A DNA stretch of 64,000 nucleotides, taken from positions 659,258 through 723,257 of the forward strand of contig JACKCN010000001.1 in NCBI GenBank assembly GCA_020634015.1, written 5' to 3'. The position numbers and the translations under genes are program-made. Origin of the DNA: Candidatus Delongbacteria bacterium. GTDB lineage: Bacteria > CAIWAD01. Below, piece after piece: positions 30,674 to 46,950 of the stretch (positions are counted from its first letter, which is position 1; every line of letters begins with the position of its first letter). A model generated the notes under the pieces. The model was given only the letters and a program-made list of their open reading frames with translations. It was not told the origin of the DNA and made no database searches.

Positions 30674-32276
30674 GGGTTGCAATCCTTTCGGGGATGCGTG
30701 TGTCCTTGTTGCGCACCGCACGGCTGATCAGGGCGGAGAGGTGAGGATAACTGAGCCCCAGCCTGTCACTCATCAGCTTGCGGTTGTGCTCGTAGCGCTG
30801 GAAGAGCCAGGCCAGGATCGTATCGTCGAATTTCTGGTTGATGTCCTTCCAGTCCAGATCGGGGTGCAGCCGGACGAATCGTGTCACGGATGCGGGAGTG
30901 GCCGGGGACCCCATCTGGCGGTGGCGCTGGCGCACGTTGCTGAGGGTTCGATGCGCGATTCCCAGTTGCTGCACGGCCTGCTTCTGTGTGCCATGTTCCT
31001 GCACGCGCAGCTCCAGCAGGGCATTCTGGAAGATCGTGCGGATTTCCTTGAGGCTGTGTGCCAGAGCGAATGCGAACTCCGCATCGTCCAGAGCCGCGCC
31101 CTCATCTGTCGACGTTCCGGGATGGCTCGCGCTGAAACGCACGTGGCTCTCGATGGCTTCCAGTCGGGTGGGAGTGGCCGGATATCCGGCCCTCAGCAGT
31201 TCCATCGTGCTGAGATAGGCTCTGGAATGGAACTGCCGGGACGGCTCGAGCTGATTCAGGCTCTCGTGACACTGGGCCAGATACAGGCAGAGCGCGGGTA
31301 CGATGATCAGCGTGCCCTGCTCCAGGGCGATGTTCAGCCCTTCGGTGAACAATTCGATCGCCTCGGCGTGACATCCTTCCTGCTTGAGGCAGCGTCCCAT
31401 CAGATCCAGGCTGTCGATGCGCGAGTAGGGGAACTCGGCCAGAGAGAGCGCGTGTGCCAGCTCCTGCATGCCCTGGTCGCGCTTGCCCTGCTGGATGTGT
31501 AGCATGCCCAGATCATTCAGCATCAGGGCCCGACAGAACTGCAGCTCAGGTCCGGCGGCCAGCTCCAGTCCGCGCAGGCACCAGGCCTCCGCGTCTTCGG
31601 GCCGCGAATCCACCAGGGCCAGCTGGGCCAGCATGCGGAAGTGCGCCACCGCGGTGGCCTTCTGACCATGCTGCATGAACCACTGAGCCGAGAGTTCCAG
31701 CTGGGCGGCCACGGACTCGCCACGAGCGGCCTGCAGCGCCAACCTGTAGTAATGATGCTGGCGCCGGAGAAACTCGGACCGGGCCAGACGCTGGATGTTG
31801 TCCAGCATCGAGCCAGCAGCGTCGGAATTGCCGATCAGCATCAGGAAACGCGCCATCTCCAGTTGCACGAAGGCCCGCTGCTCGGCATCGGTCGCGGGAG
31901 TCAGGAGGCTCCAGGCCTGGCCCAGCAACTGCCCGCCTTCGCGCAGCCGCATCTGGCTGTTCAGTCCGCGCGCCAGTCCGGCAAGCAGCACCGCCTTGTG
32001 CGAAGGGTCGCGTTCCAGTTGCAGGAGGGTGCGAAAGGCCTGACAGGTATCGGGAATGGTCTTTCCGCAGAACATGGAAAGGTGGCCGACCGCATCCAGC
32101 CACTTGGAATCGGGTTGAACTCCGTCCAGTGGGCCCAGCTCTGAGGTCGGGGACGGCCCCATGCGGAAGACTGCCGGCAGAAACGCGGTATGGGGAGCTG
32201 TGTTCATGGCGCGAAACCTGCCATCTGCTGACCGGGTTTGCCAGAAATTTTTCCATCTGGTCGCATTTTTTTCCAA
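30663..32276 (-). CDS. TPR-like regulator with two C-terminal Fis-type HTH motifs
   Basis: Helical TPR-like body. QKQAVQQLGIAHRTLSN and KLMSDRLGLSYPHLSALI HTH_8-like segments. Start could be 32207. Confidence 0.5.
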   Translation of the reverse strand: MEKNATRWKNFWQTRSADGRFRAMNTAPHTAFLPAVFRMGPSPTSELGPLDGVQPDSKWLDAVGHLSMFCGKTIPDTCQAFRTLLQLERDPSHKAVLLAGLARGLNSQMRLREGGQLLGQAWSLLTPATDAEQRAFVQLEMARFLMLIGNSDAAGSMLDNIQRLARSEFLRRQHHYYRLALQAARGESVAAQLELSAQWFMQHGQKATAVAHFRMLAQLALVDSRPEDAEAWCLRGLELAAGPELQFCRALMLNDLGMLHIQQGKRDQGMQELAHALSLAEFPYSRIDSLDLMGRCLKQEGCHAEAIELFTEGLNIALEQGTLIIVPALCLYLAQCHESLNQLEPSRQFHSRAYLSTMELLRAGYPATPTRLEAIESHVRFSASHPGTSTDEGAALDDAEFAFALAHSLKEIRTIFQNALLELRVQEHGTQKQAVQQLGIAHRTLSNVRQRHRQMGSPATPASVTRFVRLHPDLDWKDINQKFDDTILAWLFQRYEHNRKLMSDRLGLSYPHLSALISRAVRNKDTRIPERIATHDR

Positions 32277-32369: not shown

Positions 32370-32807
32370 TCAGGGAATCCGTCGGGCTGCCGGATGAACA
32401 TCCAGCTCCCAGCAGAACTCACCCTGTGGGTGGAGCCAGGTCCGCCTGGTCCGTCTTCCGGGATCCGGTTCCGGGCTGGCCGTGCTGAAGGTGGCGCAGA
32501 GGCGATAGCGGGATTCGTCCAGGATCCGGTAGCCATAGTCCGTGCCGTGCATGGGGTCCACCAGTTCGAGCGAGGCCCGGGGATCTTCGGCCAGCACGCG
32601 CAGCGAATCGGGCAGGCGGCCATGATCATTCCAGTAGGCATCAATGGCAACGACCAGCCCTTCGAGGTGGCTCACGCGCAGCTCGTCGAGGCGCAGCAGA
32701 CGCTGCTCGGCGGGAGAGGGCAACACCCCCAGCGAACGGGCCAGCACCAGCAACAGGATCACCAGTACAATGGCGCTGGCGATGCGCAGCAGACGAGCCC
32801 CGGTCAT
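32370..32807 (-). CDS. Hypothetical membrane-anchored protein
   Basis: N-terminal TM segment ASAIVLVILLLVLA. Overlaps the upstream gene's stop. Confidence 0.4.
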   Translation of the reverse strand: MTGARLLRIASAIVLVILLLVLARSLGVLPSPAEQRLLRLDELRVSHLEGLVVAIDAYWNDHGRLPDSLRVLAEDPRASLELVDPMHGTDYGYRILDESRYRLCATFSTASPEPDPGRRTRRTWLHPQGEFCWELDVHPAARRIP

Positions 32808-33463
32808 GCCAGCTCCTCGGAACTCCGCAGATCGCGGATGTAGTACAGGAACGCCGCACCGGCCAGCAGGGCCACCACAGCCACTTTCAACAGAAAACGC
32901 ACCTTCAGATCACCGTCGAGCAGGTTGTAGACCAGTACCACCAGGTCTCCCATCAGGCTGCTGGCCGCGATGAACAGGGTCAGGGCGGTCAGCCACTGGC
33001 GCACGCGCGAGGCACGTCGCATGGGCTCTTCGATCAGACTGCGGGTCAGTCGCCAGTTGAGCGCCAGGAACAGCGGAGCACAGATCACCAGCCAGGAAAT
33101 GGCCCAGCGGATGGTGGTCTGGCGTCCATTGGTGGTCATGTACTCCAGAGGATCGGGAAAGGCCTGTTCGATCAACTGGAAGGCCAGGGTCCCCAGGTTC
33201 CAGAGACCGATGTACAGCGCCAGAAACAGCAGCAGGTAGAACCAGGTCTCGCGCGGCGACACACCGGGGCGCGGACGGGGAACGGGCAGCGGCGACTCAC
33301 TGTCAGCCCAGGCCTGCAACGCGCGCTCGATATCTCGCTGGCTCCAGCCAGCCGCCAGCAGGCTCTCGGCAATGCTGGCTCTGGTCATTCCGTGTGACAA
33401 TGCGCTGTGAACGAAACGGCCCAGTTCGGGGGATTGGCTGCCCATCGTGAGACCCTCCTGCAC
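32804..33463 (-). CDS. Membrane protein (soluble N-domain plus about 4 TM helices)
   Basis: Hydrophobic segments FYLLLFLALYIGLW, WLVICAPLFLAL, LTLFIAASSLMGDLVVLV, AVVALLAGAAFLYYI. Confidence 0.45.
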   Translation of the reverse strand: MQEGLTMGSQSPELGRFVHSALSHGMTRASIAESLLAAGWSQRDIERALQAWADSESPLPVPRPRPGVSPRETWFYLLLFLALYIGLWNLGTLAFQLIEQAFPDPLEYMTTNGRQTTIRWAISWLVICAPLFLALNWRLTRSLIEEPMRRASRVRQWLTALTLFIAASSLMGDLVVLVYNLLDGDLKVRFLLKVAVVALLAGAAFLYYIRDLRSSEELA

Positions 33464-33472
33464 TCGTGTGAC

Positions 33473-34060
33473 TCAGGCGCGACTGCGTTCAACCAGTGCC
33501 GCGAAGCCCTGGCGCAACATCTGCTCGGCGTCGTCGAACTCCAGCATCCGGCTGCGATGGATGTAGGCCAGAAACAACCCGACCCAGGCGAAGACGAAGG
33601 TCTTCTCGTTGAGATCGGCGCGCAGGTCGCCTTCGTCGATGGCCAGGCGCACGGCGCGCTCGAAGGTGTCGTACAGTCGGCGCTGATAGAGCACCAGCTG
33701 ATCGTGGATCTCGCCGGGCCGGTCGTCGAACTCGAAGGCGCTGGACATGATCAGGCAGCCGCCGGGCAGGAACTCGGCATTCTCCCAGGCCAGCCAGCCT
33801 TCGAAGAGCGCCTGCACGCGCTCCAATCCACGCGCCTTTTCAAGCGCGGGGTCGAAGACGAAGTGCACCCAGCGTTCGGCCGTGGCTTCCACGACCATCT
33901 TCTGGAGGTTTTCCTTGGACTGGAAATGGGCGAACAACCCGCTCTTCGACATGTGAAGCGTGCGGGCCAGGTTGCCTATGGTCAGACCTTCGAGTCCAAG
34001 GATGCTGGCCATGCGGATGGCCTGGTCGAGGATCTGTTCGCGGGTTCGGATGCCTTTCAT
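33473..34060 (-). CDS. TetR/AcrR family transcriptional regulator
   Basis: N-terminal HTH REQILDQAIRMASILGLEGLTIGNLARTLHMSKSGLFAHFQSKE. Confidence 0.85.
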   Translation of the reverse strand: MKGIRTREQILDQAIRMASILGLEGLTIGNLARTLHMSKSGLFAHFQSKENLQKMVVEATAERWVHFVFDPALEKARGLERVQALFEGWLAWENAEFLPGGCLIMSSAFEFDDRPGEIHDQLVLYQRRLYDTFERAVRLAIDEGDLRADLNEKTFVFAWVGLFLAYIHRSRMLEFDDAEQMLRQGFAALVERSRA

Positions 34061-34198
34061 GGCCCGAGAATAGAAAAAGACGATTTCACTTGCGAATTAG
34101 ATCGATCGTTCGTTTTCTTATGGCACGATCGTTCGGTTTATTCACAGCAGCTGGACCCCTACAAGCGGCTGCTTCAACCCGGATCCCTGGAGGTGACC

Positions 34199-34786
34199 AT
34201 GAATCGCAATGCAACGACCGCCCTGCCTGAAGACATTTCACGACCGTTCAGGACACTCAACCCGTTCTCCGCTTCCACCCTGCTGGCCGCGCTGATGCTT
34301 CTGGCGGGCATGATCCCGAGCGTCCAGGCGGCGCGGATCACCAACGCGGGTCCACGAGTGGGCATGATGGTGCTCAAGGGGGCCGACAAGAATCATGCGG
34401 CCGACGCCGACATGTCCTCGATGCTGAGCGCATTCGGTTGGCACATGGAAACCGAATTCTCCAGCACCATTGGTGGCGCGCGTGGCAACACCTCGCTGGT
34501 GCTGCTGGCCGTTGGCGCCGATCAGGGCAAGCTGCTGCCGAGCGCCACCTGGCTGATCGGTGCCCGCAGCCCGGGCGGCTGGGAAGTGGGCATGGGTCCC
34601 AACGCCAGTCTGGCGGGCAGTGGATTCACCGTGGCCATGGGGCGCACCCGCAAGAGCGGTGAACTGAACCTGCCCTTCAATGTGGCCGGCACCTTCTCCC
34701 CTGACAGCTTCCGCCTCAGCCTGCTCACCGGCTTCAACATGCGCAGTGACGACATGGACACCCGCTCGCGTCACCGCGTGCGCTGA
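34199..34786 (+). CDS. Small secreted/outer-membrane-like hypothetical protein, divergent from tetR
   Basis: ATG 34199 with GGAGGTGA RBS. Signal peptide LLAALMLLAGMIPSVQAA. The 5' part of the track ORF 33407..34786 is antisense to tetR. Confidence 0.5.
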   Translation: MNRNATTALPEDISRPFRTLNPFSASTLLAALMLLAGMIPSVQAARITNAGPRVGMMVLKGADKNHAADADMSSMLSAFGWHMETEFSSTIGGARGNTSLVLLAVGADQGKLLPSATWLIGARSPGGWEVGMGPNASLAGSGFTVAMGRTRKSGELNLPFNVAGTFSPDSFRLSLLTGFNMRSDDMDTRSRHRVR

Positions 34787-35033
34787 CAGTTTTCAGGCAA
34801 GTGGATGAGCGCACTCGTGCGCCCGTACTGATTCCACCCCCTTTGCGCAGCAGAGTCAGCCAGCGTGGGCCACAGAAGACACATGTCGACCAACCGAGGC
34901 GAAGCCATCCATACCTCCCCCCACGAACTGGGGGAAGGTGGCTTGGCTTCGACTCGGACAATCAGAAGCTGGGAGCAGGGGACCACTCCAGCTGACTCTG
35001 CACCGCAATCGGGCAATTCCATGGGAGGATTCC

Positions 35034-35510
35034 ATGCTTGTCAACCCCGGGCGAATCACGATCCTGGCATTGTTGCTGGCACTTCTGTCCAGTCACACAT
35101 TCGCGCAGTCCCCGTCAGAAAGCGCCGGAATCCTCCAATCGGATGGTTCTGAAGTCAGGACACTGAACATCAAGAGTTGCAATGACTCCAGGTTGAGTGG
35201 AGTACAACAGGCAACGCTGCACCACTCGTCGGCTGGTTGGTTCTGGGGAGGAGTCGGCTCCGGGCTTGTTCTGGGGCCGATCGGAGCAGCGGCGATCACG
35301 CTGTCCGCGCGTTCGTCCAGCCCGATTCCACCTGAGATCCCGCAGGATGTCAGCAGGCAGTGCTTCCTCGAGGGCTATGATTCCACAGCCAGACGACAGA
35401 ATGTGGGTCGAGCACTCTGCGGTGGATTGATCGGGACAGCCATTCTGACTGCCGCGACCGTGTACTCGCTCAATCACATGAGTCCGGATCTGAACCCGAG
35501 GATCTACTGA
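35034..35510 (+). CDS. Hypothetical exported/membrane protein
   Basis: ATG 35034 with GGGAGGA RBS. Signal peptide ITILALLLALLSSHTFAQ. C-terminal hydrophobic segment. Confidence 0.4.
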   Translation: MLVNPGRITILALLLALLSSHTFAQSPSESAGILQSDGSEVRTLNIKSCNDSRLSGVQQATLHHSSAGWFWGGVGSGLVLGPIGAAAITLSARSSSPIPPEIPQDVSRQCFLEGYDSTARRQNVGRALCGGLIGTAILTAATVYSLNHMSPDLNPRIY

Positions 35511-35865: not shown

Positions 35866-38370
35866 TCAGTCCTTCTGGACGGGAACTCCCTGATCGGCCA
35901 CCACGTCGCCTCCGCTCATGCCTGTGTGACGGTAGTAGATCTGCAGGTACTCGTAGGCCAGATCGCTGGGAATGGAATCGTAGCGGCCCAGGTGCGCGTT
36001 GTTGAAGCCTTCGGCCAGGCCGCTGACTCGCAGCATGCCCTGCCCCACGGCCACTTCGCTGGCCAGTACCATGCCGCGCTCGTCGCTGTAGAAGGGCGTG
36101 CCACCCAGGACCTGGCGCGCATTCTCAAGGTACACCGGAAAGCGTGTCCCGGAACCGACCAGACGCGCATCACGCACGTTCTGCTCGCCCAGTTCGATGC
36201 CATATCCCCGCAGCCAGTCGTTGAGGTCACCGCAGTCCTGCCCCGGCATTGAGGCCACCAGGACTTGCCCGCCTTCCTTCATGAACAGATCCAGTTCCTT
36301 GCGGAAATCGGGAGCCGGTGCGCCCATGGGATTCAGCAGGATGTACTGGCGTGTGCCCGGGAAGAGGGTCTGGCTGGCGCGCTCGGGAATGTCGCCGGAA
36401 CGGTAGAGCCAGACATAGAAAGTTTCCATGTTCAGCGGGTCGTCGTGATCCAGCTTGTTCTTCGCGGGCAGCTCGATCCGGGAGAGGCCGGTATCCAGCA
36501 CGACCCCCGGGAGTTCGTGGCGTCGTTCGGGCATGGTGTACACGGACGCGTTGATCGCCTTCACCAACGGAATCACCAGGGCGGCCGTCAGAGCCAGCGC
36601 CAGCAGCCAGTCCACGCGGCCCGTTCCGCCTCGACGCAGGGCACCCAGGCCCAGCAGCAGGGCCAGCAGGCCGAAGATCCAGCGCTCGTCGACAGGCAGG
36701 GATTTCTGGTTCAGCCAGCCCACGATGCCCATCAGGTGTTCCAGCCGACCCTCGAGGAACATGGCGAAGTTGCTGTAGGTCGTGCTGTCGCTGAAACCCA
36801 GCACCTTGCCCTTGCCGTAGCGCACGGACACCACCTGGAACAGGTTGCCCCAGCGCAGTTCCGTGCGTGGATAGTAGACATCGAAGAAGTTGGAGGTGGC
36901 GTAGCTCAGCAGGTCGCTGCCGGTCTGGGGGCCGCGTGACACGCAGCGGGTGTTCCAGCCGGGCCTGATGCTGCACCCCGTGAGATAGCGGTACCAGGGC
37001 AGATTCTGGAAAGCCGGGTGGGCGATCACATCGTCCTGCTGCCAGAACTGGTCCTCCGTGCTCAGCAGGTCGAAGACCGTGTCCTTGTTGTAGATGAAAC
37101 CAAAGTGCCGGGTCAGTTCGTTGAGAAAGGTGCTCATCCCGAACACGTCGGTATGATCGCTGATCAGGTACAGCCCCCCGCCCGCGTGCACGAAGTCCAG
37201 CACGGAACGGATTTCATCCTCGGAATAGGCCCGGGTCGGGGTCTTGAGGATCAGCACATCCACCGTGTCCAGCAGGGCGGGCGTGAGCGGATCGAAGTTG
37301 ATGCGCGAATCGTAATGGCGCGCCAGCAGGCGGCCCAACCCATGATAGTTGTAGGTGGTGCGGGTACCGAACTGGGTGGTGTTCATGGGGTCGCCCGTCC
37401 ACTCCCAGTCGCTGTGGCCATCGTCCACCAGCACCCGGCCCGGGTTGGCACCCAGGGGAAGCTCGAGGAACACCGCCAGCCAGAAACAGAGTGCGGCACC
37501 GAAGGCCAGCAGCAGCGACTTCCGCGAGGGTGCCGCAAGTTCCGATACGGCAGCCGGTTGCAACCCACTGGCCAGCAGGCCCGCCAGCAGGATGGGCGGC
37601 AGGCCGGTGAGCGCCTGGTAGAGCGGACTCCAGGGCACTTCAAAATCGTAGAGCATGGGCGCCAGCTGGCTCTGGAACACGAAGATCAGCGCACCCCAGA
37701 GACTGGCCAGTGCCACCAGGATGCCCAGCCGCGCCAGGCCGGACAGCACAGGGCGAGCTCCTGAAGAGGAGGCCAACAATGCACGCAGCCAGAAGACCAG
37801 GAACAGTCCCAGTGCCAGCACGCGGTAATACAGGCCCGTCCATTCACCGCCCAGGGAGAACGGCAGCATTTCGTCCGGTGTCCCCAATACCCAGTCGGCC
37901 CCCAGCATGGCCGCATTGCTGCCGCCGGCCCTTGCGATGGCCTGCGCCAGCAGACCGGTGATGGCATCCCGTGGCAGCATGGCATGCAGGTAGGAAGCGG
38001 GAAGAATCAACGCATGTCCCAGAGTTCCCGCGGCCCCCGCGAACACCAGAGCCCATCCGGTGCGAGCACAGGACCCGCCCGGAATCAGCAGGGCCAGCGC
38101 GCCGCCCGCCAGCAGGACCACTCCCGGCATCCAGGCCGAAGGCAGCAACCACAGCAGAGCCAGCGCGGACAGCAGAAGTGCCGCAGCCTGCGGGCGTGAG
38201 ACAGCAGGTGCGCCCCCCCCGATCCAGCGGGCAGCCACGGCGACCCCCAGCAGCAGCGCACTCCAGCCCATGCCGTGCTCGGGCAGAACATACAGGGGGC
38301 TCAGGCAGGTGGCCGAGGCGATGCCGGCCCAGACGGCCAGCGCGGTCCAGGTTGTGGTCTGGCGGGTCAT
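35866..38370 (-). CDS. Large polytopic membrane protein with two extracytoplasmic GATase1/ThuA-like (DUF4350-like) domains; paralog of the upstream gene
   Basis: ATG 38370 overlaps the stop of the upstream paralog (ATGA). N-terminal multi-TM region. Twice the pattern hydrophobic run ... VHAGGGLYLISDHT / KEGGQVLVASMPGQD, separated by a TM segment. Confidence 0.55.
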   Translation of the reverse strand: MTRQTTTWTALAVWAGIASATCLSPLYVLPEHGMGWSALLLGVAVAARWIGGGAPAVSRPQAAALLLSALALLWLLPSAWMPGVVLLAGGALALLIPGGSCARTGWALVFAGAAGTLGHALILPASYLHAMLPRDAITGLLAQAIARAGGSNAAMLGADWVLGTPDEMLPFSLGGEWTGLYYRVLALGLFLVFWLRALLASSSGARPVLSGLARLGILVALASLWGALIFVFQSQLAPMLYDFEVPWSPLYQALTGLPPILLAGLLASGLQPAAVSELAAPSRKSLLLAFGAALCFWLAVFLELPLGANPGRVLVDDGHSDWEWTGDPMNTTQFGTRTTYNYHGLGRLLARHYDSRINFDPLTPALLDTVDVLILKTPTRAYSEDEIRSVLDFVHAGGGLYLISDHTDVFGMSTFLNELTRHFGFIYNKDTVFDLLSTEDQFWQQDDVIAHPAFQNLPWYRYLTGCSIRPGWNTRCVSRGPQTGSDLLSYATSNFFDVYYPRTELRWGNLFQVVSVRYGKGKVLGFSDSTTYSNFAMFLEGRLEHLMGIVGWLNQKSLPVDERWIFGLLALLLGLGALRRGGTGRVDWLLALALTAALVIPLVKAINASVYTMPERRHELPGVVLDTGLSRIELPAKNKLDHDDPLNMETFYVWLYRSGDIPERASQTLFPGTRQYILLNPMGAPAPDFRKELDLFMKEGGQVLVASMPGQDCGDLNDWLRGYGIELGEQNVRDARLVGSGTRFPVYLENARQVLGGTPFYSDERGMVLASEVAVGQGMLRVSGLAEGFNNAHLGRYDSIPSDLAYEYLQIYYRHTGMSGGDVVADQGVPVQKD

Positions 38371-41045
38371 TTGCGGGTCCCTCCACCGGCTGGAGTGGGC
38401 CGGGCGGGCAACTCCACCGAATTCCCCGGGGGAGATGTGCGGGGTGTCACACCGGGTTGAGGCTGCGGTCGGGGCATCGGTGTCTGCCGTCCGGCGGCCC
38501 CACCGGGTCGCATGCCACCGGGGAAGCGCGGTGGCCCCCCGGGTTGCCCCGCAGTGCTGGAGTGGATCTGGGGCAGATTGAACATGCCATACACCAACTG
38601 CTGACGTTTGTTCAGGCGGTCCGGCGGCAGGTCCGGCCCCGGAGTCAGGACTCGGTTCAGACTGTCGGAGTACTGTTCCATCCACGCACGCAGGGCGGGA
38701 GCCACTGGAGTGGGGCGCTGCTGGGGTTGCATGGAATCAAGGAACCGGCGTGCCGTGTTGAGGGGCCGCCCGTTGCGTTGCGAGCCCTCGAGACTCCACT
38801 TGGTCAGCAGGTGTTCGTCGCCCATGATGCTGACCATGCCCTTGCCGATGTGCTTCATGCCCACGATGGGATAGTCCCAACAACTGATCAGGGTATCCAG
38901 AGCGCCTTCAGTACTCATCACGGGCCAGGCCTCGTAGAACTGGAATTCGGCCGGCGTGCCCTGGCGCGTGCGGCTCTCGGGAGCCGTTCCAAGCGGCGTA
39001 TCACCAATATCCAGCTGAAGTTCCTCGAGCAGAGGCAGCAGTGCATCCCGGCGGCGCCAGTCTCCGGCGATCATCAGCCTGCCCCCATTCTCGACCCAGG
39101 TACGCAACTGGCGCGATTCACGCGGCGTCCAGCGGCGTGCGCTGCCATTCACCAGAAACCAGTGACACCCCTCGAGCTGGCGCACATCGAAATCCCAGAG
39201 AAAGAGCGGCAGCTTGTTGGAATTGTAACACGCCTCCACCAAGGACATCACACTCCAATCCATCGTGCTGCTGCTGTGGAAGGATGGCAGATGAGAATAG
39301 TCGATCCAGCAGATCGCCTCCTTGCGCACAGCCACTGGGCTGGCCTGACTGCCCTGAACCCAGGCGGCCGCCAGCAGCATGCCCGAGGCCGGCAAGGCCC
39401 AGGCCAGCAGACTGCGAACACGCCCATCGGCCAGCAGCAGGGGCAACGCGACCATCAACAGCAACCAGCCCAGCAGGGGCCAGACCGGGTGGCGTCCGAA
39501 GACGGGATGGGCCAGCAACCCGCGCACCAGATTCAGATGGAACGGCCAGACCTGGGGCGTGCTCAGGCTCATCAGGCCAGAGGTATCTCCGATGGCGCAG
39601 ATCACACCACTGCCGCGAGCCTGGCTGGCGACCAACACGATGCTGCCGAAGCGCTCGTCCCAGCCGTAGCGGTTGTCACCCATCTTGCCGCGAGGGTTGT
39701 CCGGATTGCCCCGGTCGGAAAAGGCCATGGTGCCCACAATCATTGGCTGGGCAGGCCATCCGGTCTGCAGCGAACCGCCGATGCTGATTCCCAGCTGCTG
39801 GGCATTGCGCATCCCGCGGGTCGTGGGGCCGGGCAGGTATCGTTGCACATGATTCCAGTTCCAGCCGCGCCAGGCGGGAATCGCGCTGTCGTCCTTGAGT
39901 CTCATGCTGGTTTCGCGCAGCAGGTCGTTCACACCCGAACGGATGTCATTGACGTTGGTGTGTTCGCCCACCAGCACCAGCGCGCCGCCATTGTCGGTCC
40001 ACTCCATCAGGGTGTCACGCAGTTCACGGGGCAGGGGCTCGGTGGGATGGATCACGAAGACCAGGTCGTAGTCATCTGCGCGTCGCTGGAGTTCCTCGTC
40101 CTTGAGAATGTCCACCCGGGCGCCCCAACGCTTCAGCACCTCCAGCAGCCCACCCATGCGCGGACCGGGCCGGGTGCCCTCCCGCGTGCTCTCCCAGGAC
40201 CAGTCCCCCTCCTCGCGAAAGGCGATCGTCACCCCGTCAAGAGACGCGCGGGACGCGGGCAGGGCCGCATGCCACACGATCGCCAGTCCAAGCACGGCCA
40301 GCACGGGCAGGGCCCAACCGGGAAGCCGTGCACGGAAGGACGAGGTTCCGGCTGGATTCGCGCGCAGCAGAAGTTCCAGCAGCAGCATGCCGCAGGCGAA
40401 CCAGGCCAGGGGGAAGAGGTCGATGTTCGCCGGTGGCACATCAAGTGATCCGATCCAGACCCCCATCGCGATCAGTCCGCCCAGCAGGGCACTGGTTCCG
40501 GCCAGCACACTGCGCGAAGCCCGCAGGACAAGTCCCGCCAGCAGCCGGATTGCGAAATGGAACACCAGCAGGAACACTCCCGTGCTGTCGCCCCACTGCA
40601 GATTGCGATCCGCCAGAGAGCCCAGGAATCCGGTGACATGCAGCGAAAGCCAGTCGGAGAGCCAGAAAAGCTGTGGTGTCGAGAACAGCAGACTGCCCGC
40701 GGCCGCCAGAAGCATCACGACCGCGGGATGGCGCAGGCCTGGATGCCGCAGAAAAAGGAACACGGCCAGTGGCAGCAGAAAGAAGGCACTCAGGCCGGGC
40801 ACGCTGAAGAACACGACCAGCAAGGCGGGAATCGCCCAGAGATCGTGGCGGCTTCCTTGCAGAGGAAGCAGTGCCAGCAGGGTACCGGGCAGCAACAGCA
40901 GCAGGGCAAGGGGGAGTGCACTGGTGCTGTGCAGCACGGGCAGCCAGCCACCGGCGACGAGAGTGCCCAGCCCCAGCAGGAACTCGGCAAGGATGCCCAG
41001 TGGCGACAGGCTGTTCGGGAAAAGGCGCCGAATCATGGTGATCAC
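38367..41045 (-). CDS. Large polytopic membrane protein with two extracytoplasmic GATase1/ThuA-like (DUF4350-like) domains and a Pro-rich C-terminal tail
   Basis: 892 aa. About 8 N-terminal TM helices. DLVFVIHPTEPLPRELRDTLMEWTDNGGALVLVGEHT and RQLRTWVENGGRLMIAGDW repeats. Tail PRPQPQPGVTPRTSPPG. Confidence 0.55.
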   Translation of the reverse strand: MITMIRRLFPNSLSPLGILAEFLLGLGTLVAGGWLPVLHSTSALPLALLLLLPGTLLALLPLQGSRHDLWAIPALLVVFFSVPGLSAFFLLPLAVFLFLRHPGLRHPAVVMLLAAAGSLLFSTPQLFWLSDWLSLHVTGFLGSLADRNLQWGDSTGVFLLVFHFAIRLLAGLVLRASRSVLAGTSALLGGLIAMGVWIGSLDVPPANIDLFPLAWFACGMLLLELLLRANPAGTSSFRARLPGWALPVLAVLGLAIVWHAALPASRASLDGVTIAFREEGDWSWESTREGTRPGPRMGGLLEVLKRWGARVDILKDEELQRRADDYDLVFVIHPTEPLPRELRDTLMEWTDNGGALVLVGEHTNVNDIRSGVNDLLRETSMRLKDDSAIPAWRGWNWNHVQRYLPGPTTRGMRNAQQLGISIGGSLQTGWPAQPMIVGTMAFSDRGNPDNPRGKMGDNRYGWDERFGSIVLVASQARGSGVICAIGDTSGLMSLSTPQVWPFHLNLVRGLLAHPVFGRHPVWPLLGWLLLMVALPLLLADGRVRSLLAWALPASGMLLAAAWVQGSQASPVAVRKEAICWIDYSHLPSFHSSSTMDWSVMSLVEACYNSNKLPLFLWDFDVRQLEGCHWFLVNGSARRWTPRESRQLRTWVENGGRLMIAGDWRRRDALLPLLEELQLDIGDTPLGTAPESRTRQGTPAEFQFYEAWPVMSTEGALDTLISCWDYPIVGMKHIGKGMVSIMGDEHLLTKWSLEGSQRNGRPLNTARRFLDSMQPQQRPTPVAPALRAWMEQYSDSLNRVLTPGPDLPPDRLNKRQQLVYGMFNLPQIHSSTAGQPGGPPRFPGGMRPGGAAGRQTPMPRPQPQPGVTPRTSPPGNSVELPARPTPAGGGTRK

Positions 41046-41407
41046 GGAAAGTTCATCCGGTTTTGTGTGTCAATGGGAATTCTGTCGGGGAGACTGCCTT
41101 GCGCGTTGCAATGTAGAACCTTGACCGGCGCGAAAGAAAACAAAAGCGGAAGTCCCGAGGATCGGCGGTGTCAGCCAGCGGCCGACAAGAGGCCTGTGCG
41201 GGTGAGACCGGACATCTGGATCCATTCCAGGAGCCGCGACTGGCAGCCAGATCCCGGCCAGATCATTGGCCGACAACTTTTCACGGCATTGTGTTGCCCA
41301 TTCTGAAGTCAGGATCTGAATCATTTCATCGTTATCACAACGACAGAAGAGGTGCGGGCGTCAGATTGTTTCGTAACGCGGTAATGATTCAGCAAGCCGA
41401 ATAATTC

Positions 41408-41436
41408 TTGACTTCTACTGTATGGGGCCATACAAT
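41408..41436 (+). promoter_or_regulatory. Sigma-70-like promoter TTGACT-N17-TACAAT for the giant repeat gene
   Basis: TTGACTtctactgtatggggccaTACAAT in the AT-richer intergenic region, about 100 nt upstream of ATG 41538. Confidence 0.5.
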
Positions 41437-41537
41437 GCGCCACAGTGCACCAGCGGCCCCTCCCCCCCGGACTGCCGGTTCTGATCGCTTGCAACACACT
41501 GAACTTGAATTCAATCCGAACCACCGGGAGGTAAACC

Positions 41538-44500
41538 ATGTTTGCCCGTTGGACTCCGCTCACTCTCCTGTCCATGCTCGGTGCGGGACTGCTGATCGCC
41601 TCAGCGCCGTCCCTGCACGCCGCAGGAAAGACGCCCCTCTTCGATTACCAGACCAAATCCACCGTCCAGCGCTTCAACCAGCAGCTGATCAACGTGGAGA
41701 ACGGCAAGTCTGCCGCCGAGGAGGGCAATGCGGTCACCAAGCCAGCCGGGCATGCCACGGCCGGAGACATCACGAATCCGCAGATGGATCCCGCCTGCCA
41801 GACCAACCCACAGTTCGACCCGGCCTGTCAGACCAATCCCGCGACCGATCCGGACTGCGTGACCAATCCGGTCACGGACCCGGCCTGTCGCACGAATCCG
41901 CAGTTCGATCCGACCTGCGTGCCCACCGACCCGGCCGTGGACCCCAATTGCATGACCAATCCGGATTTCGACCCGGCCTGCGTGCCCACCAATCCTCAGA
42001 TCGACCCGACCTGCCAGACCAATCCCGACTACGATCCGGTCTGCGGTCCTACCAATCCGGCCTTCGACCCGACCTGTCAGACCAATCCCGACTGGGATCC
42101 CGATTGCCAACCGACCAATCCCTCCTGGGACCCGATGTGCAACACTAATCCCCAGTACGATCCGACCTGCACCACCGACCCGTCGGTGAATCCTGAGTGT
42201 TACCAGACCAATCCGCAGTATCACTCGGCCTGTCAGACCCAGCCCCAGTGGGACCCCGCCTGCGGCTTCACCGATCCGGCCATGGATCCGAACTGCTTCA
42301 CCAATTCGGCATACATGCCCGAGTGCAGCACCAACCCGCAGTTCGACCCTTACTGCGAGACGAATCCCCAGTACATGGCGGGCTGCGACACCAATCCGAT
42401 CTACAACCCGGATTGCTACACCAACACGTTCTTCGATCCCAGCTGTCTGACTCAGCCAGCCTACGACCCGCACTGCTTCACGAATCCGGTGGACGGAACC
42501 AGCTGCGTGTCTAACCCGCTCTATGATCCGAGTTGCGAGACCAACCCGGTGTATGGCTTCTGCCAGACCAACCCCGACTTCGAACCGGGCTGTGAGACAA
42601 ACCCACTGTACCAGTCTTCCTGCGTGACCAGCACCTACTTTGACCCGTTCTGCCATACCAACCCACAGTATGCGCCGTCCTGTGCCACCAACCCTGAATT
42701 TGACGCGACCTGCAGCACCAACCCGCTGTATTCGCCCAATTGCCTGACGAACCCCGACCTGGATCCGCTCTGCGAGACCAACCCGGCCTGGGGCATTCCG
42801 TGCAGCACCAATCCCCAGTACACGCCCAATTGCGTGACCAACCCGCTGTACCAGAGCGCGTGCGAGACCAACCCGAATTATGTCGAGCATTGCGACACCA
42901 ATCCGGTGTACACACCCAACTGCGAGACCAACCCGATCTGGAGCGAGGCCTGCACCACCAACCCGGACTGGGACTTCTGCCACACCAATCCGCAGTATGG
43001 CCCGACCTGCCAGACCAATCCGCAGTACTTCCCCGAGTGCCAGACCAACCCGGCCTGGTCCAGTGCCTGCTCCACCAATCCGCAGCACGATCCGCATTGC
43101 GAAACCAATCCGGAGTATCAGGCCAACTGCCAGACAAACCCGCTGTTCAATCCGCTGTGCAGCACCGACCCCAGCTTCGATCCGGGCTGCCATACCGATC
43201 CGGATTTCGATCCGGCCTGCTACACCAATATGTGGTACGGTGGGTTCTGCGAGACCAATCCGATCTATGACACTCCCTGTGAGACCAACCCGGCCTGGGG
43301 CTTCTGCACCACAAACCCGACGGTCGAGCCGAATTGCCAGACCAATCCGCAGTACAGCCTGAACTGCAGCACCGATCCGTATTTCGACCCGTCCTGCTAC
43401 ACCAATCCGGCCAGCAGTCCCTTCTGCGTTACAAACCCGGACTACATGGCGGACTGCAACACCAACCCAGTGTACCAGGCAAGCTGCAGCACCAATCCGG
43501 ATTTCGACCCCGATTGCCAGACCAATCCGAGCTGGGGCGGCGACTGCAGCACCAATCCGCAGTACGATCCGGCCTGCCTGACCAATGCGCTGTACGATCC
43601 GGCCTGCCATACCAATCCGTTCTTCGACAGCCACTGCGAGACCAACCCGCAGTACTTCGAGAACTGCAGCACCAACCCGATCTATCAGTCGGGCTGCGAC
43701 ACCAATCCGGACTACGGATTCTGCATCACCAACCCGAACCATTTCCCGGGCTGCCACACCAATCCGCAGTACTATCTGGATTGCAACACCAACCCGAACT
43801 GGGTCTCGACCTGCATGACCAGTCCGCAATTCGACCCGACCTGTCAGGTGACCAATCCGGATCTGTATGCCAACTGCCACACCAACCCGGACTACAGCCC
43901 ACTGTGCCAGATGACCAATCCGGAATACTCCCCGGAATGCCAGACCGATCCGTCCTGGGATCCCACCTGTCTGGACACCAATCCGGTGTTCTCACCGAAT
44001 TGCTACACCAACCCGGTGCATGATCCGACCTGCCTGACACATCCGCAGTTCCAGCCGGAGTGCGAGACCAACCCGCAGTTCCTGCCCGGTTGCGACACCA
44101 ACCCGATCTACAACCCGGATTGCTGGTCGAATCCCTTCTTTGACCCGACCTGTTCGACCAATCCGAACTACGACCCGACCTGCTTCACCAACCCGGTGGA
44201 TGGCACGAGTTGCGTCTCCAACCCGCTCTACAATCCGCAGTGCGATACCAATCCGTCCTGGGGATTCTGCCAGACCGATCCGCAGTACGAGCCCGATTGC
44301 AATACGGATCCGCTCTTCAACCCGACCTGCGTGACCAATCCGTACTTCGATCCTTCGTGCCACACGAATCCGGCCTACACTCCGGATTGCGAGACCAATC
44401 CGCAATACCAGCCGGGATGCGATACCAATCCGCTGTACAACCCGGCCTGCCAGACGCACCCGGACTTCGACCAGCAGTGCCAGACCAATCCGGCCTATGG

Positions 44501-45986
44501 CGTGATCTGCGATACCAATCCGCAGTACAGTCCGAATTGCGAGACCAATCCGTTCTACGCGGCGGATTGCGCCACCAACCCGCAGTTCGACACCTTCTGC
44601 GAGACGAATCCGCAGTACACCCCGAACTGCTCGACCAACCCGCTCTTCGATTACAGCTGCGAGACCAATCCGGCCTGGGACTTCTGCGTGACCAACACCC
44701 TGTTCGACCCGTCCTGCGACACGAACCCGCAGTACTTCGATCATTGCAACACCAACCCGGTGCACGATCCGCAGTGCCACACCAACCCGCAGTTCGACCA
44801 CCACTGCCAGACCAATCCTGAGTTTGGTCCGGACTGCACGACCAATCCGCTGTGGCAGGTGAGTTGCGAGACCAGTCCCTTCTACGATCCGGGTTGCGTG
44901 ACCCAGCCGGCCTACGACCCGCATTGCTTCACCAACCCCGTGGACGGTACGGTCTGCGACACCAACCCGATCTACCAGCCCGGTTGCGAAACCAATCCGG
45001 CCTATGGGTTCTGCACCACCAACCCGGAATTCGAACCCGGTTGCGAGAGCAATCCGCAGTACAGCCCGTTCTGCACGACCAACCCGAGTCACGATCCGGA
45101 TTGCACGTCAAACCCGGCCTACAGCCCGTTCTGCGACACCAACCCGGCCTACAACCCGGATTGCAGCACCAACCCGATCTACGATCCGGCGGCCTGCCTG
45201 ACGCACCCGGTCTACGATCCGCAGTGCCAGACCAATCCCGACTGGGGTGTGATCTGCACCACGAATCCGACCTACGACCCGGCCTGCATGACCAATACGC
45301 AGTTCGATCCGGCCTGCATGACCAATCCATACCTGGATCCGCATTGCAGCACGAACCCGTCGATTCACCCGGGCTGCAGCACCAATCCGATCTTCAACCA
45401 GAATTGTCAGACCAACCCGGTGCATGGCTTCTGCCTGACCAATCCCTTCTGGCACGGTGGCTGCAACACGAACCCGGCGTTCTATCCGTGGTGCTCGACC
45501 GATCCCACCTGGGATCCGGCCTGCGTCACCAATCCTGCGCTCGATCCGGGCTGCGCCTTCACCGATCCGGCGTTCAATCCCTTCTGCGCGACCAACCCGA
45601 TGTGGGACAACAGCTGCGTGACCCGGCCCCAGTACGACCCGGGCTGCCAGACCAACCCGCATTGGCAGTTGAACTGCTGCATCTCGGTCAGCGAGCTCGA
45701 GATTCAGCTGGTGAACCTTGATCCGGTGATCCAGATCCACTGGAACGATGTGCCGTACGCCACGTCCTATCGGGTCGAGGGACGCCGCGCCACCGGACGC
45801 TGGATCGTGATCGGCGAAACCACCGAGACCTTCATGGACTTCACGCCTCCGCTGACCACGGCCGACGCGGTGTTCAGCTTCCGCGTGATCACCATCTGCC
45901 CGGACCCGCCGATCGAGTCCGATGAAGGCCACCCCGGCCCCCTGGACACACCGGTGCTCCAGCCCGGATATGGTTTCACCCGCTAG
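41538..45986 (+). CDS. Giant secreted Cys-decapeptide tandem-repeat protein (about 130 units C-x-T-N-P-x-[YFW]-[DN]-P-x) with a C-terminal FN3/Ig-like domain
   Basis: Uninterrupted 4449-nt ORF. RBS GGGAGG 7 nt before the ATG. Signal peptide MFARWTPLTLLSMLGAGLLIASAPSLHAAG. 30-nt periodicity across about 3.9 kb with exactly one Cys per unit. C-terminal about 100 aa (IHWNDVPYATSYRVEGRRATGRWIVIGE...) is FN3-like. Terminator follows. Confidence 0.8.
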   Translation: MFARWTPLTLLSMLGAGLLIASAPSLHAAGKTPLFDYQTKSTVQRFNQQLINVENGKSAAEEGNAVTKPAGHATAGDITNPQMDPACQTNPQFDPACQTNPATDPDCVTNPVTDPACRTNPQFDPTCVPTDPAVDPNCMTNPDFDPACVPTNPQIDPTCQTNPDYDPVCGPTNPAFDPTCQTNPDWDPDCQPTNPSWDPMCNTNPQYDPTCTTDPSVNPECYQTNPQYHSACQTQPQWDPACGFTDPAMDPNCFTNSAYMPECSTNPQFDPYCETNPQYMAGCDTNPIYNPDCYTNTFFDPSCLTQPAYDPHCFTNPVDGTSCVSNPLYDPSCETNPVYGFCQTNPDFEPGCETNPLYQSSCVTSTYFDPFCHTNPQYAPSCATNPEFDATCSTNPLYSPNCLTNPDLDPLCETNPAWGIPCSTNPQYTPNCVTNPLYQSACETNPNYVEHCDTNPVYTPNCETNPIWSEACTTNPDWDFCHTNPQYGPTCQTNPQYFPECQTNPAWSSACSTNPQHDPHCETNPEYQANCQTNPLFNPLCSTDPSFDPGCHTDPDFDPACYTNMWYGGFCETNPIYDTPCETNPAWGFCTTNPTVEPNCQTNPQYSLNCSTDPYFDPSCYTNPASSPFCVTNPDYMADCNTNPVYQASCSTNPDFDPDCQTNPSWGGDCSTNPQYDPACLTNALYDPACHTNPFFDSHCETNPQYFENCSTNPIYQSGCDTNPDYGFCITNPNHFPGCHTNPQYYLDCNTNPNWVSTCMTSPQFDPTCQVTNPDLYANCHTNPDYSPLCQMTNPEYSPECQTDPSWDPTCLDTNPVFSPNCYTNPVHDPTCLTHPQFQPECETNPQFLPGCDTNPIYNPDCWSNPFFDPTCSTNPNYDPTCFTNPVDGTSCVSNPLYNPQCDTNPSWGFCQTDPQYEPDCNTDPLFNPTCVTNPYFDPSCHTNPAYTPDCETNPQYQPGCDTNPLYNPACQTHPDFDQQCQTNPAYGVICDTNPQYSPNCETNPFYAADCATNPQFDTFCETNPQYTPNCSTNPLFDYSCETNPAWDFCVTNTLFDPSCDTNPQYFDHCNTNPVHDPQCHTNPQFDHHCQTNPEFGPDCTTNPLWQVSCETSPFYDPGCVTQPAYDPHCFTNPVDGTVCDTNPIYQPGCETNPAYGFCTTNPEFEPGCESNPQYSPFCTTNPSHDPDCTSNPAYSPFCDTNPAYNPDCSTNPIYDPAACLTHPVYDPQCQTNPDWGVICTTNPTYDPACMTNTQFDPACMTNPYLDPHCSTNPSIHPGCSTNPIFNQNCQTNPVHGFCLTNPFWHGGCNTNPAFYPWCSTDPTWDPACVTNPALDPGCAFTDPAFNPFCATNPMWDNSCVTRPQYDPGCQTNPHWQLNCCISVSELEIQLVNLDPVIQIHWNDVPYATSYRVEGRRATGRWIVIGETTETFMDFTPPLTTADAVFSFRVITICPDPPIESDEGHPGPLDTPVLQPGYGFTR

Positions 45987-46012
45987 TCCACACCACAGCC
46001 CACTCAACAGGA

Positions 46013-46045
46013 ACCCCGCCGCGAGGCGGGGTTCTTTCTTTCTTC
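46013..46045 (+). terminator. Rho-independent terminator of the giant repeat gene
   Basis: AACCCCGCC-gcga-GGCGGGGTT followed by CTTTCTTTCTT. Confidence 0.7.
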
Positions 46046-46092
46046 CCTGGATGATCAGGCGGGAGTATTGAAAGTCAGGTGGCAATGCGGGT

Positions 46093-46778: not shown

Positions 46779-46950
46779 TCTGGGCCCAAGGAATTGGTAT
46801 CGCCGGGAGGGATGAACGATATTCCGCAATCTCATTTCCCGTTCTGGATCATCGGTCCAGAATTGTCCATCAGCTGGCACCTTCTTGCCAGCAATCCAGA
46901 CGGACGCTCACCCCGGAAGTCAACAGCAACCCGCCATCCCGGAGGTACCC

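Follow-up and report, generated by a model that had tools for sequence, protein, structure and literature searches.

What do two large membrane proteins do beside the gene of a giant cysteine-rich repeat protein, and does the proximity mean anything? The question is raised by a 64,000-nucleotide stretch of DNA from a Candidatus Delongbacteria bacterium (GenBank assembly GCA_020634015.1, contig JACKCN010000001.1, positions 659,258 to 723,257 of the forward strand). The whole stretch is called here the window, and coordinates without a locus name refer to it. The two proteins, A and B, are encoded in tandem and diverge from the repeat-protein gene (Table 1). They carry soluble domains of the GIFT/DUF4350/GldG type, which are widespread and for which we know of no molecular function in prokaryotes. 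We describe a module that consists of A, B and one or more secreted proteins, here termed clients, and tentatively propose that A and B form a membrane complex that docks, anchors or assembles clients marked by a short N-terminal box.

The gene pair and its distribution

The listing of open reading frames (ORFs) gave two long frames on the minus strand (38367-41045 and 35866-38685) of the window, whose GC content is about 64%. Gene B starts inside the second of them, at the ATG at 38370, and its product is 100% identical to database protein P0001 from a Candidatus Delongbacteria metagenome-assembled genome. The product of gene A, in the 889-aa form that starts at the ATG at 41036, is 100% identical to database protein P0042. 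The first-pass annotation had given lengths of 892 and 834 aa. The latter stands for B; the former is reached only from an in-frame GTG at 41045, three codons before the ATG of A, and the 889-aa form is the one on record. The ATGA overlap by which the genes had been described as translationally coupled was confirmed.

Relatives of the pair were sampled at one genome per species, and 80 loci were taken from at least 375 relatives; the counts given below refer to a set of 85 non-redundant loci, whose ORFs were classed by profile search. In 72 of the 85 loci, the two genes share a strand and A comes directly before B, abutting or overlapping it. B is matched end to end by the profile across the loci, hence the whole architecture is old. 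The loci span more than 15 phyla, archaea included. The hosts belong to Planctomycetota, Thermodesulfobacteriota (among them Desulfonema magnum, whose genome is complete), Verrucomicrobiota, Ignavibacteria, Chloroflexota, Bacillota, Gemmatimonadota, Myxococcota (Polyangium), Alphaproteobacteria, anammox bacteria and Thermoplasmatota archaea. In the archaeal loci, genes of deoxyhypusine synthase, eIF-6 and topoisomerase VI are present as well.

Gene A is missing from a few loci that have B, although enough upstream sequence is present. Two such B-only loci, L025 (4631-6226 and 6230-8848) and L016 (9212-15292), are situated in glycan-assembly clusters with GT2 and GT4 glycosyltransferases and a Wzx-type flippase. 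The gene of a PMT_2-type GT-C glycosyltransferase in L025 stops 4 nt before B, an arrangement that recalls the STT3-OST48 partnership.

No Pfam family appears more than three times among the 97 other immediate neighbours, and the 25 most frequent families listed for these neighbours include no ABC transporter, AAA+ ATPase or vWA families. Within 10 kb of the window pair, no ABC ATPase or ABC-2 permease was found. Since no other family recurs among the neighbours, the module of A, B and one or more clients is self-contained.

Cysteine-periodic proteins encoded next to the pair

A functional link between the pair and the repeat gene had been suggested in the first-pass annotation, which named absence of conserved linkage in related genomes as the outcome that would speak against it. 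The opposite was found. Relatives with 47-56% identical B proteins have a divergent gene of 960-1589 aa at the same position. The sequence of this neighbour could be read in two of them (L003 and L004) and has the same repeat as the window client, and the 1485-aa neighbour on the JGI contig vn7geCdi is counted as orthologous by size and position only. In relatives at 39-46% identity, the pair and the repeat gene share a strand, with the repeat gene either upstream or downstream, and several of the repeat proteins have a type IX secretion C-terminal domain. At 27% identity, the gene of a 1812-aa C-x-x-T-x-D-P-x-D-P protein precedes the pair. A Cys-periodic secreted neighbour is present in every close relative with DNA to read and in most distant ones.

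We counted as Cys-periodic any ORF with at least 4.5% Cys in regular spacing, by ad hoc thresholds chosen from the same loci, and found such ORFs, often giant, in 51 of the 85 loci. An ORF that is Cys-periodic, or has the N-terminal box described in the next section, or both, was found in 61 of the 85 loci; among the 41 loci where at least 5 kb is available on either side, 34 have one. The distance from the pair to the closest such ORF is at most 1.5 kb in 56 of these 61 loci (median gap over the 61, 129 bp), and 80% of these ORFs are on the strand of the pair. Some of the negative loci are false negatives, as in Anaerolineae, where a divergent gene encodes a 1065-aa protein (SSPFFEATLQQ...) with TDPxxC repeats.

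Most clients consist of low-complexity repeats with one Cys per 4-14 residues and with Thr or Ser beside the Cys. The repeat chemistry differs completely across lineages. The window client has CxTNPxxDPx repeats; the Desulfonema client (1450 aa, 153 Cys) has ETxCPxx, a type also found in Verrucomicrobia; two Ignavibacteria clients of about 1040 aa, with 150 Cys each, have TCxGxx, a type also found in Planctomycetes; the client of Bacillota (827 aa) has STCA repeats, and that of Polyangium GSxC repeats. The anammox client has 1453 aa. What persists throughout is the periodic Cys and the N-terminal box.

Some clients match families of other kinds or have distinctive ends. The Pfam match of the window client to Extensin_1 is compositional and comes from its Pro-rich repeats. 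The GSxC pentapeptide clients of Alphaproteobacteria and Polyangium (L050, 6136-7083; L052, 8112-8894) score 24.9 and 21.2 bits with the NCBIfam model NF038108, "Cys-every-fifth RiPP peptide CefA" (RiPP, ribosomally synthesized and post-translationally modified peptide); both are under the cut-off of 30, and we read this match, too, as probably compositional. TCxGxx clients, with up to 153 Cys per 1040 aa (L009, 3691-5037 and 6001-7389; L079, 1-3111 and 3287-6439; L046, 3640-6147), presumably resemble a greatly elongated form of the beta-helix, stapled by disulfides, of the beetle antifreeze protein (TCTxSxxCxxAx). Some Cys-periodic clients (L046, 3640-6147; L019, 12547-13842) end in a hydrophobic helix and a basic cluster, in a manner similar to PEP-CTERM (...SPSPLTMLASLGFACLGMISTRRSRVG and ...GTPLGLLVVFCVGLGVVARKRQ). 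Given that client C-termini vary from a type IX domain to an Fn3-like end or a helix with a basic tail, the far end of the clients would be anchored or sorted in several ways.

The SPLF box

Comparison of client N-termini revealed a common element just past the signal peptide, SP[LIMV][FY]xx[ST]Lxxx[LV]xxF, hence termed the SPLF box. The box of the window client reads GKTPLFDYQTKSTVQRFNQQL, with the core TPLF at residues 32-35 (nt 41631-41642). A box profile of 34 residues was searched against 7022 six-frame ORFs (1.38 million residues) of all loci and the whole window. E-values below 2e-3 were obtained solely for ORFs that flank a pair, 13 non-seed ORFs among them, and the next best E-value was above 0.03. 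The client N-termini resemble ordinary Sec signal peptides, and their AxA-type sites precede the box by 0-12 residues; therefore, the box would be placed at the mature N-terminus.

The box is not restricted to repeat proteins. The boxed neighbour in Desulfonema magnum and in two other deltaproteobacterial loci is a DsbA-like thioredoxin (Thioredoxin_4, 5e-23; DSBA, 3e-19), and a profile built from the Cys-repeat clients alone recovers the boxed DsbA-like proteins of L059 (1e-4), L061 (2e-4) and L032 (2e-6). Three planctomycete loci encode boxed TPR proteins. The Pfam census of boxed proteins comprises Por_Secre_tail (4), TPR (3), DsbA-like (2) and PD40 (2).

Thermoplasmatota loci encode boxed proteins of about 185 aa just after the pair (L029, 5595-6215; L036, 15149-15838 and 15918-16658; L042, 7775-8500; L075, 11642-12388; L078, 8058-8738; L080, 7601-8269). 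They have an N-terminal helix followed by SPLF, a helical middle part, P-L-P-L-G-L-S, and a C-terminal membrane helix with a conserved Cys; Cys repeats and Pfam families were not found in them. The archaeal and TPR-type proteins are placed among the putative boxed proteins by just three features: they have the SPL[FY] core, have it at the matching position, and are encoded beside the pair.

Architecture of A and B

Hydropathy and AlphaFold2 models give a common plan for the two proteins. A polytopic N-terminal domain (N-domain) of about nine helices is followed by an alpha/beta domain, a two-helix membrane hairpin and a second alpha/beta domain. The model of B has a predicted local distance difference test score (pLDDT) of 91.9 and a predicted template modelling score (pTM) of 0.92, with an input alignment of 39 sequences; that of A has a pLDDT of 71.7, with 13 sequences. 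The plan agrees with the one drawn in the first-pass annotation, except that what was given there as a single membrane segment between the soluble domains is two helices that form a hairpin with an Arg-rich turn. For the Pro-rich tail of A described there, disorder is predicted. The GG-x-L strand motif, also noted there, is present in all four soluble domains, and the following H-T is confined to the first domain of each protein.

Because the linker between the two soluble domains is a two-helix hairpin, both domains of a protein are expected on one and the same extracytoplasmic side. The turns of the hairpins are basic and by the positive-inside rule would be cytoplasmic; an outward orientation is therefore predicted for each of the four soluble domains and for the conserved loops in the N-domain of B.

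The N-domain of B contains a small three-stranded sheet (residues 152-172 of the model), followed by a PEWTG motif (E176). Its conserved loops at the outer face are S-P-L-Y (24-27) and E-x-P-W-x-P-L (244-250). The first of these (38290-38301; family pattern P-x-Y/F-x-L-P) comes directly after the first membrane helix, so that the B N-terminus has the layout of the client tag: a basic N-terminus, a hydrophobic helix and SPL[FY]. This likeness could mark the site that client tags take in the partner subunit, or it could be due to chance.

Domain families and duplications

The tentative assignment of the soluble domains to a GATase1/ThuA/DUF4350/GldG-like group made in the first-pass annotation holds, with agreement between Pfam, a profile search of Protein Data Bank (PDB) sequences and Foldseek. 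A matches Pfam DUF4350 (PF14258) with 52 bits (cut-off 30.4) in two stretches, the better one in the second domain, and scores 25.9 bits, under the cut-off of 34.7, with ABC_transp_aux (PF09822, the GldG family). For B the situation is reversed: 38.7 bits with ABC_transp_aux (residues 359-462, profile positions 34-148 of 288), and 23.7 bits with DUF4350, under the cut-off. The match of the window proteins to IFT52_GIFT is slightly under the Pfam threshold. Within the families, DUF4350 and ABC_transp_aux (the latter counted at E of at most 0.1) are matched by 39 of 39 B and 13 of 13 A members, and IFT52_GIFT by 39 of 39 and 12 of 13, respectively. ThuA (PF06283) has weak matches in 23 of the 39 B relatives (best 2e-5), and none in A or B of the window at E of at most 1. 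OST48_N, DUF4159 and the GATase-like domain of site-1 protease are matched sporadically among family members.

The structural comparison points to the same group. The best Foldseek hits of the B model are IFT52 GIFT domains (5fmr/5fms, E 1.7e-7 to 3.6e-6, TM-score 0.65-0.74 normalised to the target), followed by OST48/Wbp1 of the oligosaccharyltransferase (6c26_B, 7oci_G, 6s7t_G), GATase1-like domains found in glycosidases such as mannosidases, and ThuA-like proteins (4e5v). The A model finds GH42-type domains first and IFT52 third (5fmr, E 1.4e-5, TM-score 0.60). The B-family profile matches IFT52 (5fmr_A) among PDB sequences by its second domain (E 4e-8). By profiles and models, the soluble domains of A and B belong with those of IFT52-GIFT, OST48, GldG and DUF4350.

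The duplication of the soluble domain inside each protein was confirmed by hhalign (domain 1 against domain 2, E about 2e-15 in B and 1.5e-9 in A). Comparisons of like with like between the proteins score better still, with E 7e-29 for the first domains and about 2e-17 for the second domains; therefore, the domain duplication is older than the gene duplication. The alignment of A with B begins at the last helix of the N-domain and covers 495 columns (E 1e-45), whereas no similarity of the two N-domains is detectable (hhalign probability about 1%). Their description as tandem paralogs thus applies to the C-terminal two thirds and not to the N-terminal polytopic domains.

The N-domains stand apart from known families. 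No Pfam or NCBIfam family was matched by them in searches with whole proteins and 15 isolated domains, and no relatives were found by the N-domain profiles among PDB sequences. A phmmer search with residues 1-308 of B against 1.84 billion representatives gave five matches, all of them family members, and an N-domain profile matched a single fragment among 5.8 billion proteins. Alignments of the N-domains (84 and 66 sequences) had an hhalign probability of 0.1% with the PMT_2 GT-C protein of L025, and GT-C Pfam families were not matched. An exosortase-like reading, based on a likeness of strand-strand-strand-"CSG" to "PEWTG", was dropped: neither A nor B matches Exosortase_EpsH or the TIGR exosortase models, and there is no conserved Cys.

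The score of B above the Pfam cut-off for ABC_transp_aux also allows for A and B being GldG-like accessory subunits of an ABC transporter or a gliding machine, with incidental adjacency to the repeat gene. Type IX secretion cargo is encoded nearby (26963-30721), and two of the host genera, Desulfonema and Polyangium, are gliders. We consider this very improbable and largely refuted. With the GldG equivalog TIGR03521 of NCBIfam, B scores 10.8 bits (E 0.13) against a cut-off of 389.85, and A has no match. The architecture is unlike that of GldG, ABC ATPase and ABC-2 permease genes are missing from the surroundings covered above, and the linkage to Cys-periodic or boxed proteins extends across phyla, most of them non-gliding. 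The clear match to a well-characterised transporter-accessory family, unrelated to the neighbouring gene, that had been named at the outset as a possible objection to the link was not found.

Conserved residues

Conservation was computed over 84 B and 70 A homologues with an overall identity of about 28%. The most conserved part of the module is the first GIFT domain of B. Residues W322, E323, Y340, G397-G398, H406, T407, D528, S529, T530, S533 and F535 are conserved in 100% of the sequences, and D316, K376, P378, T379, N417, D430, H451, C466, Y490, Q512 and R522 in at least 92% (H451 and C466 in at least 93%); at position 522, R is the family consensus and the window protein has K. Judged by the order of secondary-structure elements in the model, the conserved residues follow strands 1, 3 and 4 and lie on the G-D-S-T strand, where they would line a flavodoxin-like ligand crevice. 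The first GIFT domain of A has H359 and T360 conserved at 99% and D441 and D484 at 100%, and also keeps D383, E461 and T485. The nucleophile Cys of class I glutamine amidotransferases and DJ-1/PfpI proteins is absent at the strand-4 elbow, which reads S-D-H-T in B and G-E-H-T in A; the conserved Cys of B (C466) is located away from the elbow. Residues E176 and W247 of the B membrane domain are conserved in 80% and 86% of the 84 homologues.

Conservation of this kind in the first GIFT domain of B (H406, T407, H451, C466 and D528-T530) is enzyme-like, and raises the main alternative, that A and B are a modifying enzyme at the outer face of the membrane. An OST-like or PMT-like enzyme would use its polytopic domain to move a lipid-linked sugar onto the Thr or Ser beside every Cys, with the GIFT domains in the role of OST48. 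Alternatively, a thiol-directed or peptide-cleaving activity might be situated in the first GIFT domain of B, with its conserved His, His, Cys and Asp. OST48, which partners the STT3 glycosyltransferase, has this fold, as do ThuA-like enzymes and glycosidase domains; in all repeat types, the Cys has a Thr or Ser as its neighbour; the wider B family keeps R131, H133, E176 and R229 near the outer membrane face; and the two B-only loci described above lie among glycosyltransferase and flippase genes, one of them with the PMT_2-type gene just before B. We nevertheless regard an enzyme as unlikely. The N-domains have no sequence or profile similarity to the GT-C, PMT, STT3, O-antigen ligase or exosortase families, no peptidase or sortase signal was found, and genes for sugar activation or glycosyl transfer are not recurrent near the A+B module (3 of 97 neighbours). 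The putative catalytic residues of the membrane domain are replaced in the clade of the window protein, and the GIFT domains of IFT52 or OST48 have no demonstrated catalysis.

Proposed function of the module

The reading that we favour, with confidence a little short of even, is that A and B are a membrane complex that docks, anchors or assembles boxed clients. It builds on the architecture, the domain family, the A-then-B pairing, the adjacency to boxed or Cys-periodic proteins and the lack of other recurrent partners. The invariant adjacency of the genes suggests a heterodimer. A and B would be two subunits of a cytoplasmic-membrane complex with about 22 membrane helices and four GIFT-type domains on its outer face. 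This complex would be dedicated to Sec-exported clients marked by an amphipathic box at the mature N-terminus or at most about 12 residues from it. Most of these clients would be long rods, represented in the window by the 1482-aa protein. The complex would capture the box as the client leaves the Sec translocon and hold the client N-terminus at the membrane, thus serving as an anchor and assembly platform during oxidation of the periodic cysteines. In some lineages, it would also recruit a DsbA-like oxidoreductase with the same box.

Physical recognition of the box is a prediction from sequence, and so is docking or assembly rather than chemical modification. A docking and assembly platform is favoured because the closest structural relatives are scaffolding subunits, the role that IFT52 and OST48 have within multiprotein complexes in solved contexts; because the tag is placed at the membrane-proximal mature N-terminus; because the clients, as rods of diverse chemistry, have only Cys periodicity in common; and because the tag is also found on a dedicated thiol oxidase, as though this were recruited to one and the same site.

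The Por_Secre_tail domains on some clients, and the resemblance of the N-terminal tag to a sorting signal, could also fit a dedicated export or release conduit, in effect a small secretion system, which would pass the rigid Cys-periodic rods beyond the cytoplasmic membrane or on to an outer-membrane apparatus, for example type IX secretion. GldG-type domains are historically tied to the gliding and type IX apparatus, and archaeal DUF4350 proteins were proposed as parts of a secretion complex (PMC5898192). A conduit seems improbable: the clients already carry ordinary Sec signal peptides, no ATPase or other energy-coupling gene recurs nearby, the module is also present in single-membrane Bacillota and archaea, which have no outer membrane to cross, and most clients lack a type IX domain.

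Several points weigh against a docking and assembly complex. The near-invariant polar set of B (W322/E323, K376, H406/T407, H451, C466, D528-T530) looks equally like an active or metal site, which would favour an enzyme. The wider B family conserves R131, H133, E176, R229 and W247 near the outer face, of which the clade of the window protein keeps only E176 and W247; its replacements of polar membrane-domain residues are R229 to I, H133 to P and Q118 to G. Because three conserved polar residues are replaced, this clade may work somewhat differently from the wider family. The inner membrane cannot be the final place of those clients that have a C-terminal domain for type IX secretion. The seeds of the box profile were picked by a regular expression from the same loci, its statistics are partly circular, and its background consists of those loci and the window. 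The held-out box profile failed to recover the boxed proteins of the TPR type and of archaea (E 0.16-4). Finally, the box might serve folding or export, and its co-occurrence with the pair might have some other cause.

A broader picture, quite possible if short of likely, is that the pair is the core of an ancient and so far unrecognised tag-and-machine sorting and assembly system of many bacterial phyla. A GIFT heterodimer would read the SPLF box, anchor, mature or covalently process giant, disulfide-laddered Cys-periodic surface rods, and recruit boxed DsbA-like and TPR helpers. The A/B core extends to Thermoplasmatota archaea, so far without the tag in firm form.

The locus provides a concrete, testable handle on the function of GIFT/DUF4350/GldG domains, with two membrane proteins and with clients identifiable from a short tag at the N-terminus. 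The module, which is conserved across phyla, can be studied in cultivable hosts (Desulfonema magnum, Polyangium). It also gives puzzling giant Cys-periodic low-complexity secreted proteins a place and predicts their partners.

Features of the window around the module

The AT-richer spacer between the pair and the repeat gene, described in the first-pass annotation, is about 500 bp long (Table 1). No Rfam match to a regulatory RNA was found in it (41037-41537).

Table 1. Coordinates of the A/B gene pair, the client gene and their parts in the window.
Feature	Position	Strand	Details
Gene A, upstream member of the pair	38367..41036	-	889 aa, ATG 41036; ORF, database identity, Pfam DUF4350 1.4e-13, AlphaFold2 model
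N-terminal polytopic membrane domain of A	40251..41036	-	aa 1-262, about 9-10 helices; hydropathy, AlphaFold2
First GIFT/GATase1-like domain of A, predicted extracytoplasmic	39507..40244	-	aa 265-510; weak Pfam ABC_transp_aux, hhalign to B domain 1, Foldseek
Motif GGALVLVGEHT in first GIFT domain of A	39957-39989	-	aa 350-360; sequence
Two-helix membrane hairpin of A	39357..39485	-	aa 518-560, helices 518-534 and 538-560; basic turn DGRVRS, predicted cytoplasmic; hydropathy, AlphaFold2
Second GIFT domain of A	38781..39329	-	aa 570-752; best Pfam DUF4350 stretch, hhalign to A domain 1 and B domain 2
Disordered Pro/Gly-rich C-terminal tail of A	38370..38564	-	aa 825-889; pLDDT <50; absent from B
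ATGA overlap, stop of A and start of B	38367..38370	-	translational coupling; read from sequence
Gene B, downstream member of the pair	35866..38370	-	834 aa; ORF, database identity, Pfam ABC_transp_aux 9.2e-10, AlphaFold2 pLDDT 91.9
N-terminal polytopic domain of B	37456..38370	-	aa 1-305, 9 helices; AlphaFold2, alignment
First GIFT domain of B	36703..37443	-	aa 310-556; Pfam ABC_transp_aux and IFT52_GIFT, Foldseek; most conserved part of the module
Motif GGGLYLISDHT in first GIFT domain of B	37150-37182	-	aa 397-407; sequence
Two-helix membrane hairpin of B	36541..36687	-	aa 562-610, helices 562-580 and 585-610; turn RRGGTGR; AlphaFold2, sequence
Second GIFT domain of B	35926..36531	-	aa 614-815; profile match to IFT52 5fmr_A, E 4e-8, over 648-739; hhalign to B domain 1
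Divergent intergenic region, A+T-richer	41037..41537		GC 0.51-0.57 vs about 0.64 in flanks
Sigma-70-like site TTGACT-17-TACAAT, facing the repeat gene	41408-41436	+	motif in intergenic region
Client gene, secreted 1482-aa protein	41538..45986	+	about 130 copies of C-x-T-N-P-x-(F/Y/W)-(D/N)-P-x, period 10-11; Fn3-like end
Signal peptide and SPLF box of the 1482-aa client	41538..41714	+	signal peptide aa 1-28 (...SLHA|AGK), box aa 26-59; box profile E 1.5e-7

The GC skew, which is about 0 elsewhere in the window, is strongly negative in the giant repeat gene (-0.22 to -0.26, 42001-46000); the codon composition of the repeat, rich in ACC, AAC, CCG and TGC, presumably accounts for it. About 50 nt past a terminator-like hairpin downstream of the gene (about 46013-46048) begins a tandem array of a 36-bp repeat (46101-46772, 18.7 copies, 91% matches) with the consensus GCCTGCTGCAAGGCCAGCAACCTCCGCTGGCATCAC. 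Each unit contains a GCCAGC...GCTGGC palindrome. The array is open on both strands (ORFs 46068-47090 on the plus strand and 46078-46770 on the minus strand), with the translations ACCKASNRRWQD... and GCWPCSRR..., and these frames probably reflect the repeat DNA and are not genes.

On the other side of the pair, a minus-strand gene (26963-30721) encodes a protein of 1252 aa that combines nine CarboxypepD_reg domains with a C-terminal domain for type IX secretion; by this protein, the organism has type IX secretion cargo close to the module. The gene of a TPR/HTH (helix-turn-helix) protein lies upstream of it (30663-32276, minus strand), and the same CarboxypepD_reg/type IX and TPR/HTH genes are found near the pair in the relative L004. 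Between these genes and the pair are the gene of a DUF5671 membrane protein and two ORFs without a Pfam match (32804-33463 on the minus strand, 33407-34786 and 34938-35510 on the plus strand). L004 has a 185-aa gene after the pair, which is convergent on it like the window ORF 34938-35510.

Comparison with known systems

No description of the module, be it the architecture, the A/B pairing, the box or the Cys-periodic linkage, was found in Pfam, NCBIfam or such literature as could be searched. The domains themselves come from families that are known but functionally opaque.

GldG and its ABC_transp_aux family (GldAFG, the gliding ABC transporter of Flavobacterium) also have a membrane-anchored, outward-facing GIFT/GATase1-like domain with GGxLL and G-D-S/T-x-F strands. 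In contrast to A and B, GldG consists of one soluble region with a single helix at either end, and its gene accompanies those of an ABC ATPase (GldA) and a permease (GldF). A and B have a nine-helix N-domain, two GIFT domains split by a helical hairpin, and no ABC partner. The DUF4350/arCOG01314 proteins of archaea and bacteria belong to the same domain superfamily and are likewise predicted to act in an envelope complex. Their genes are encoded with MoxR-type AAA+ ATPases and vWA proteins, and an arCOG01314-type protein has a signal peptide, together with just one helix at its C-terminus (Makarova et al. 2015, PMC5898192). The A/B module differs in architecture and has no MoxR/AAA+ or vWA partner in the window or recurring among the listed neighbour families.

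The GIFT domain of IFT52 and the N-terminal domain of OST48/Wbp1, both from eukaryotic scaffolding subunits, are among the best structural matches, and IFT52 is the best sequence-profile match. OST48, like A and B, is membrane-anchored with its domain on the non-cytoplasmic side. Both IFT52 and OST48 have only 11-16% identity to A and B and lack a polytopic domain, and the H-T/His/Cys/Asp-Ser-Thr set is specific to the B family. On the side of the clients, the Thr-Cys periodicity of TCxGxx proteins (L009, L046, L079) recalls the Tenebrio antifreeze protein, whereas the window repeat, Pro-rich with a period of 10-11, is a different sequence type.

The closest parallels in logic are PEP-CTERM and exosortase, the type IX C-terminal domain and PorU, the lipoprotein export signal of Bacteroidetes and SipW-type signal peptides. 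In these systems, too, diverse and often low-complexity secreted proteins carry a short tag, and a dedicated polytopic membrane protein is encoded alongside. A and B are unrelated in sequence to exosortases, rhombosortases and signal peptidases, so that the likeness is one of working principle. The tag of the A/B module is N-terminal on the mature protein and not C-terminal. If the tag-reading model is true, it would provide an annotation rule for several hundred "hypothetical" gene triplets, and the module would be a new kind of envelope protein-sorting system, the N-terminal counterpart of the exosortase, type IX and sortase systems.

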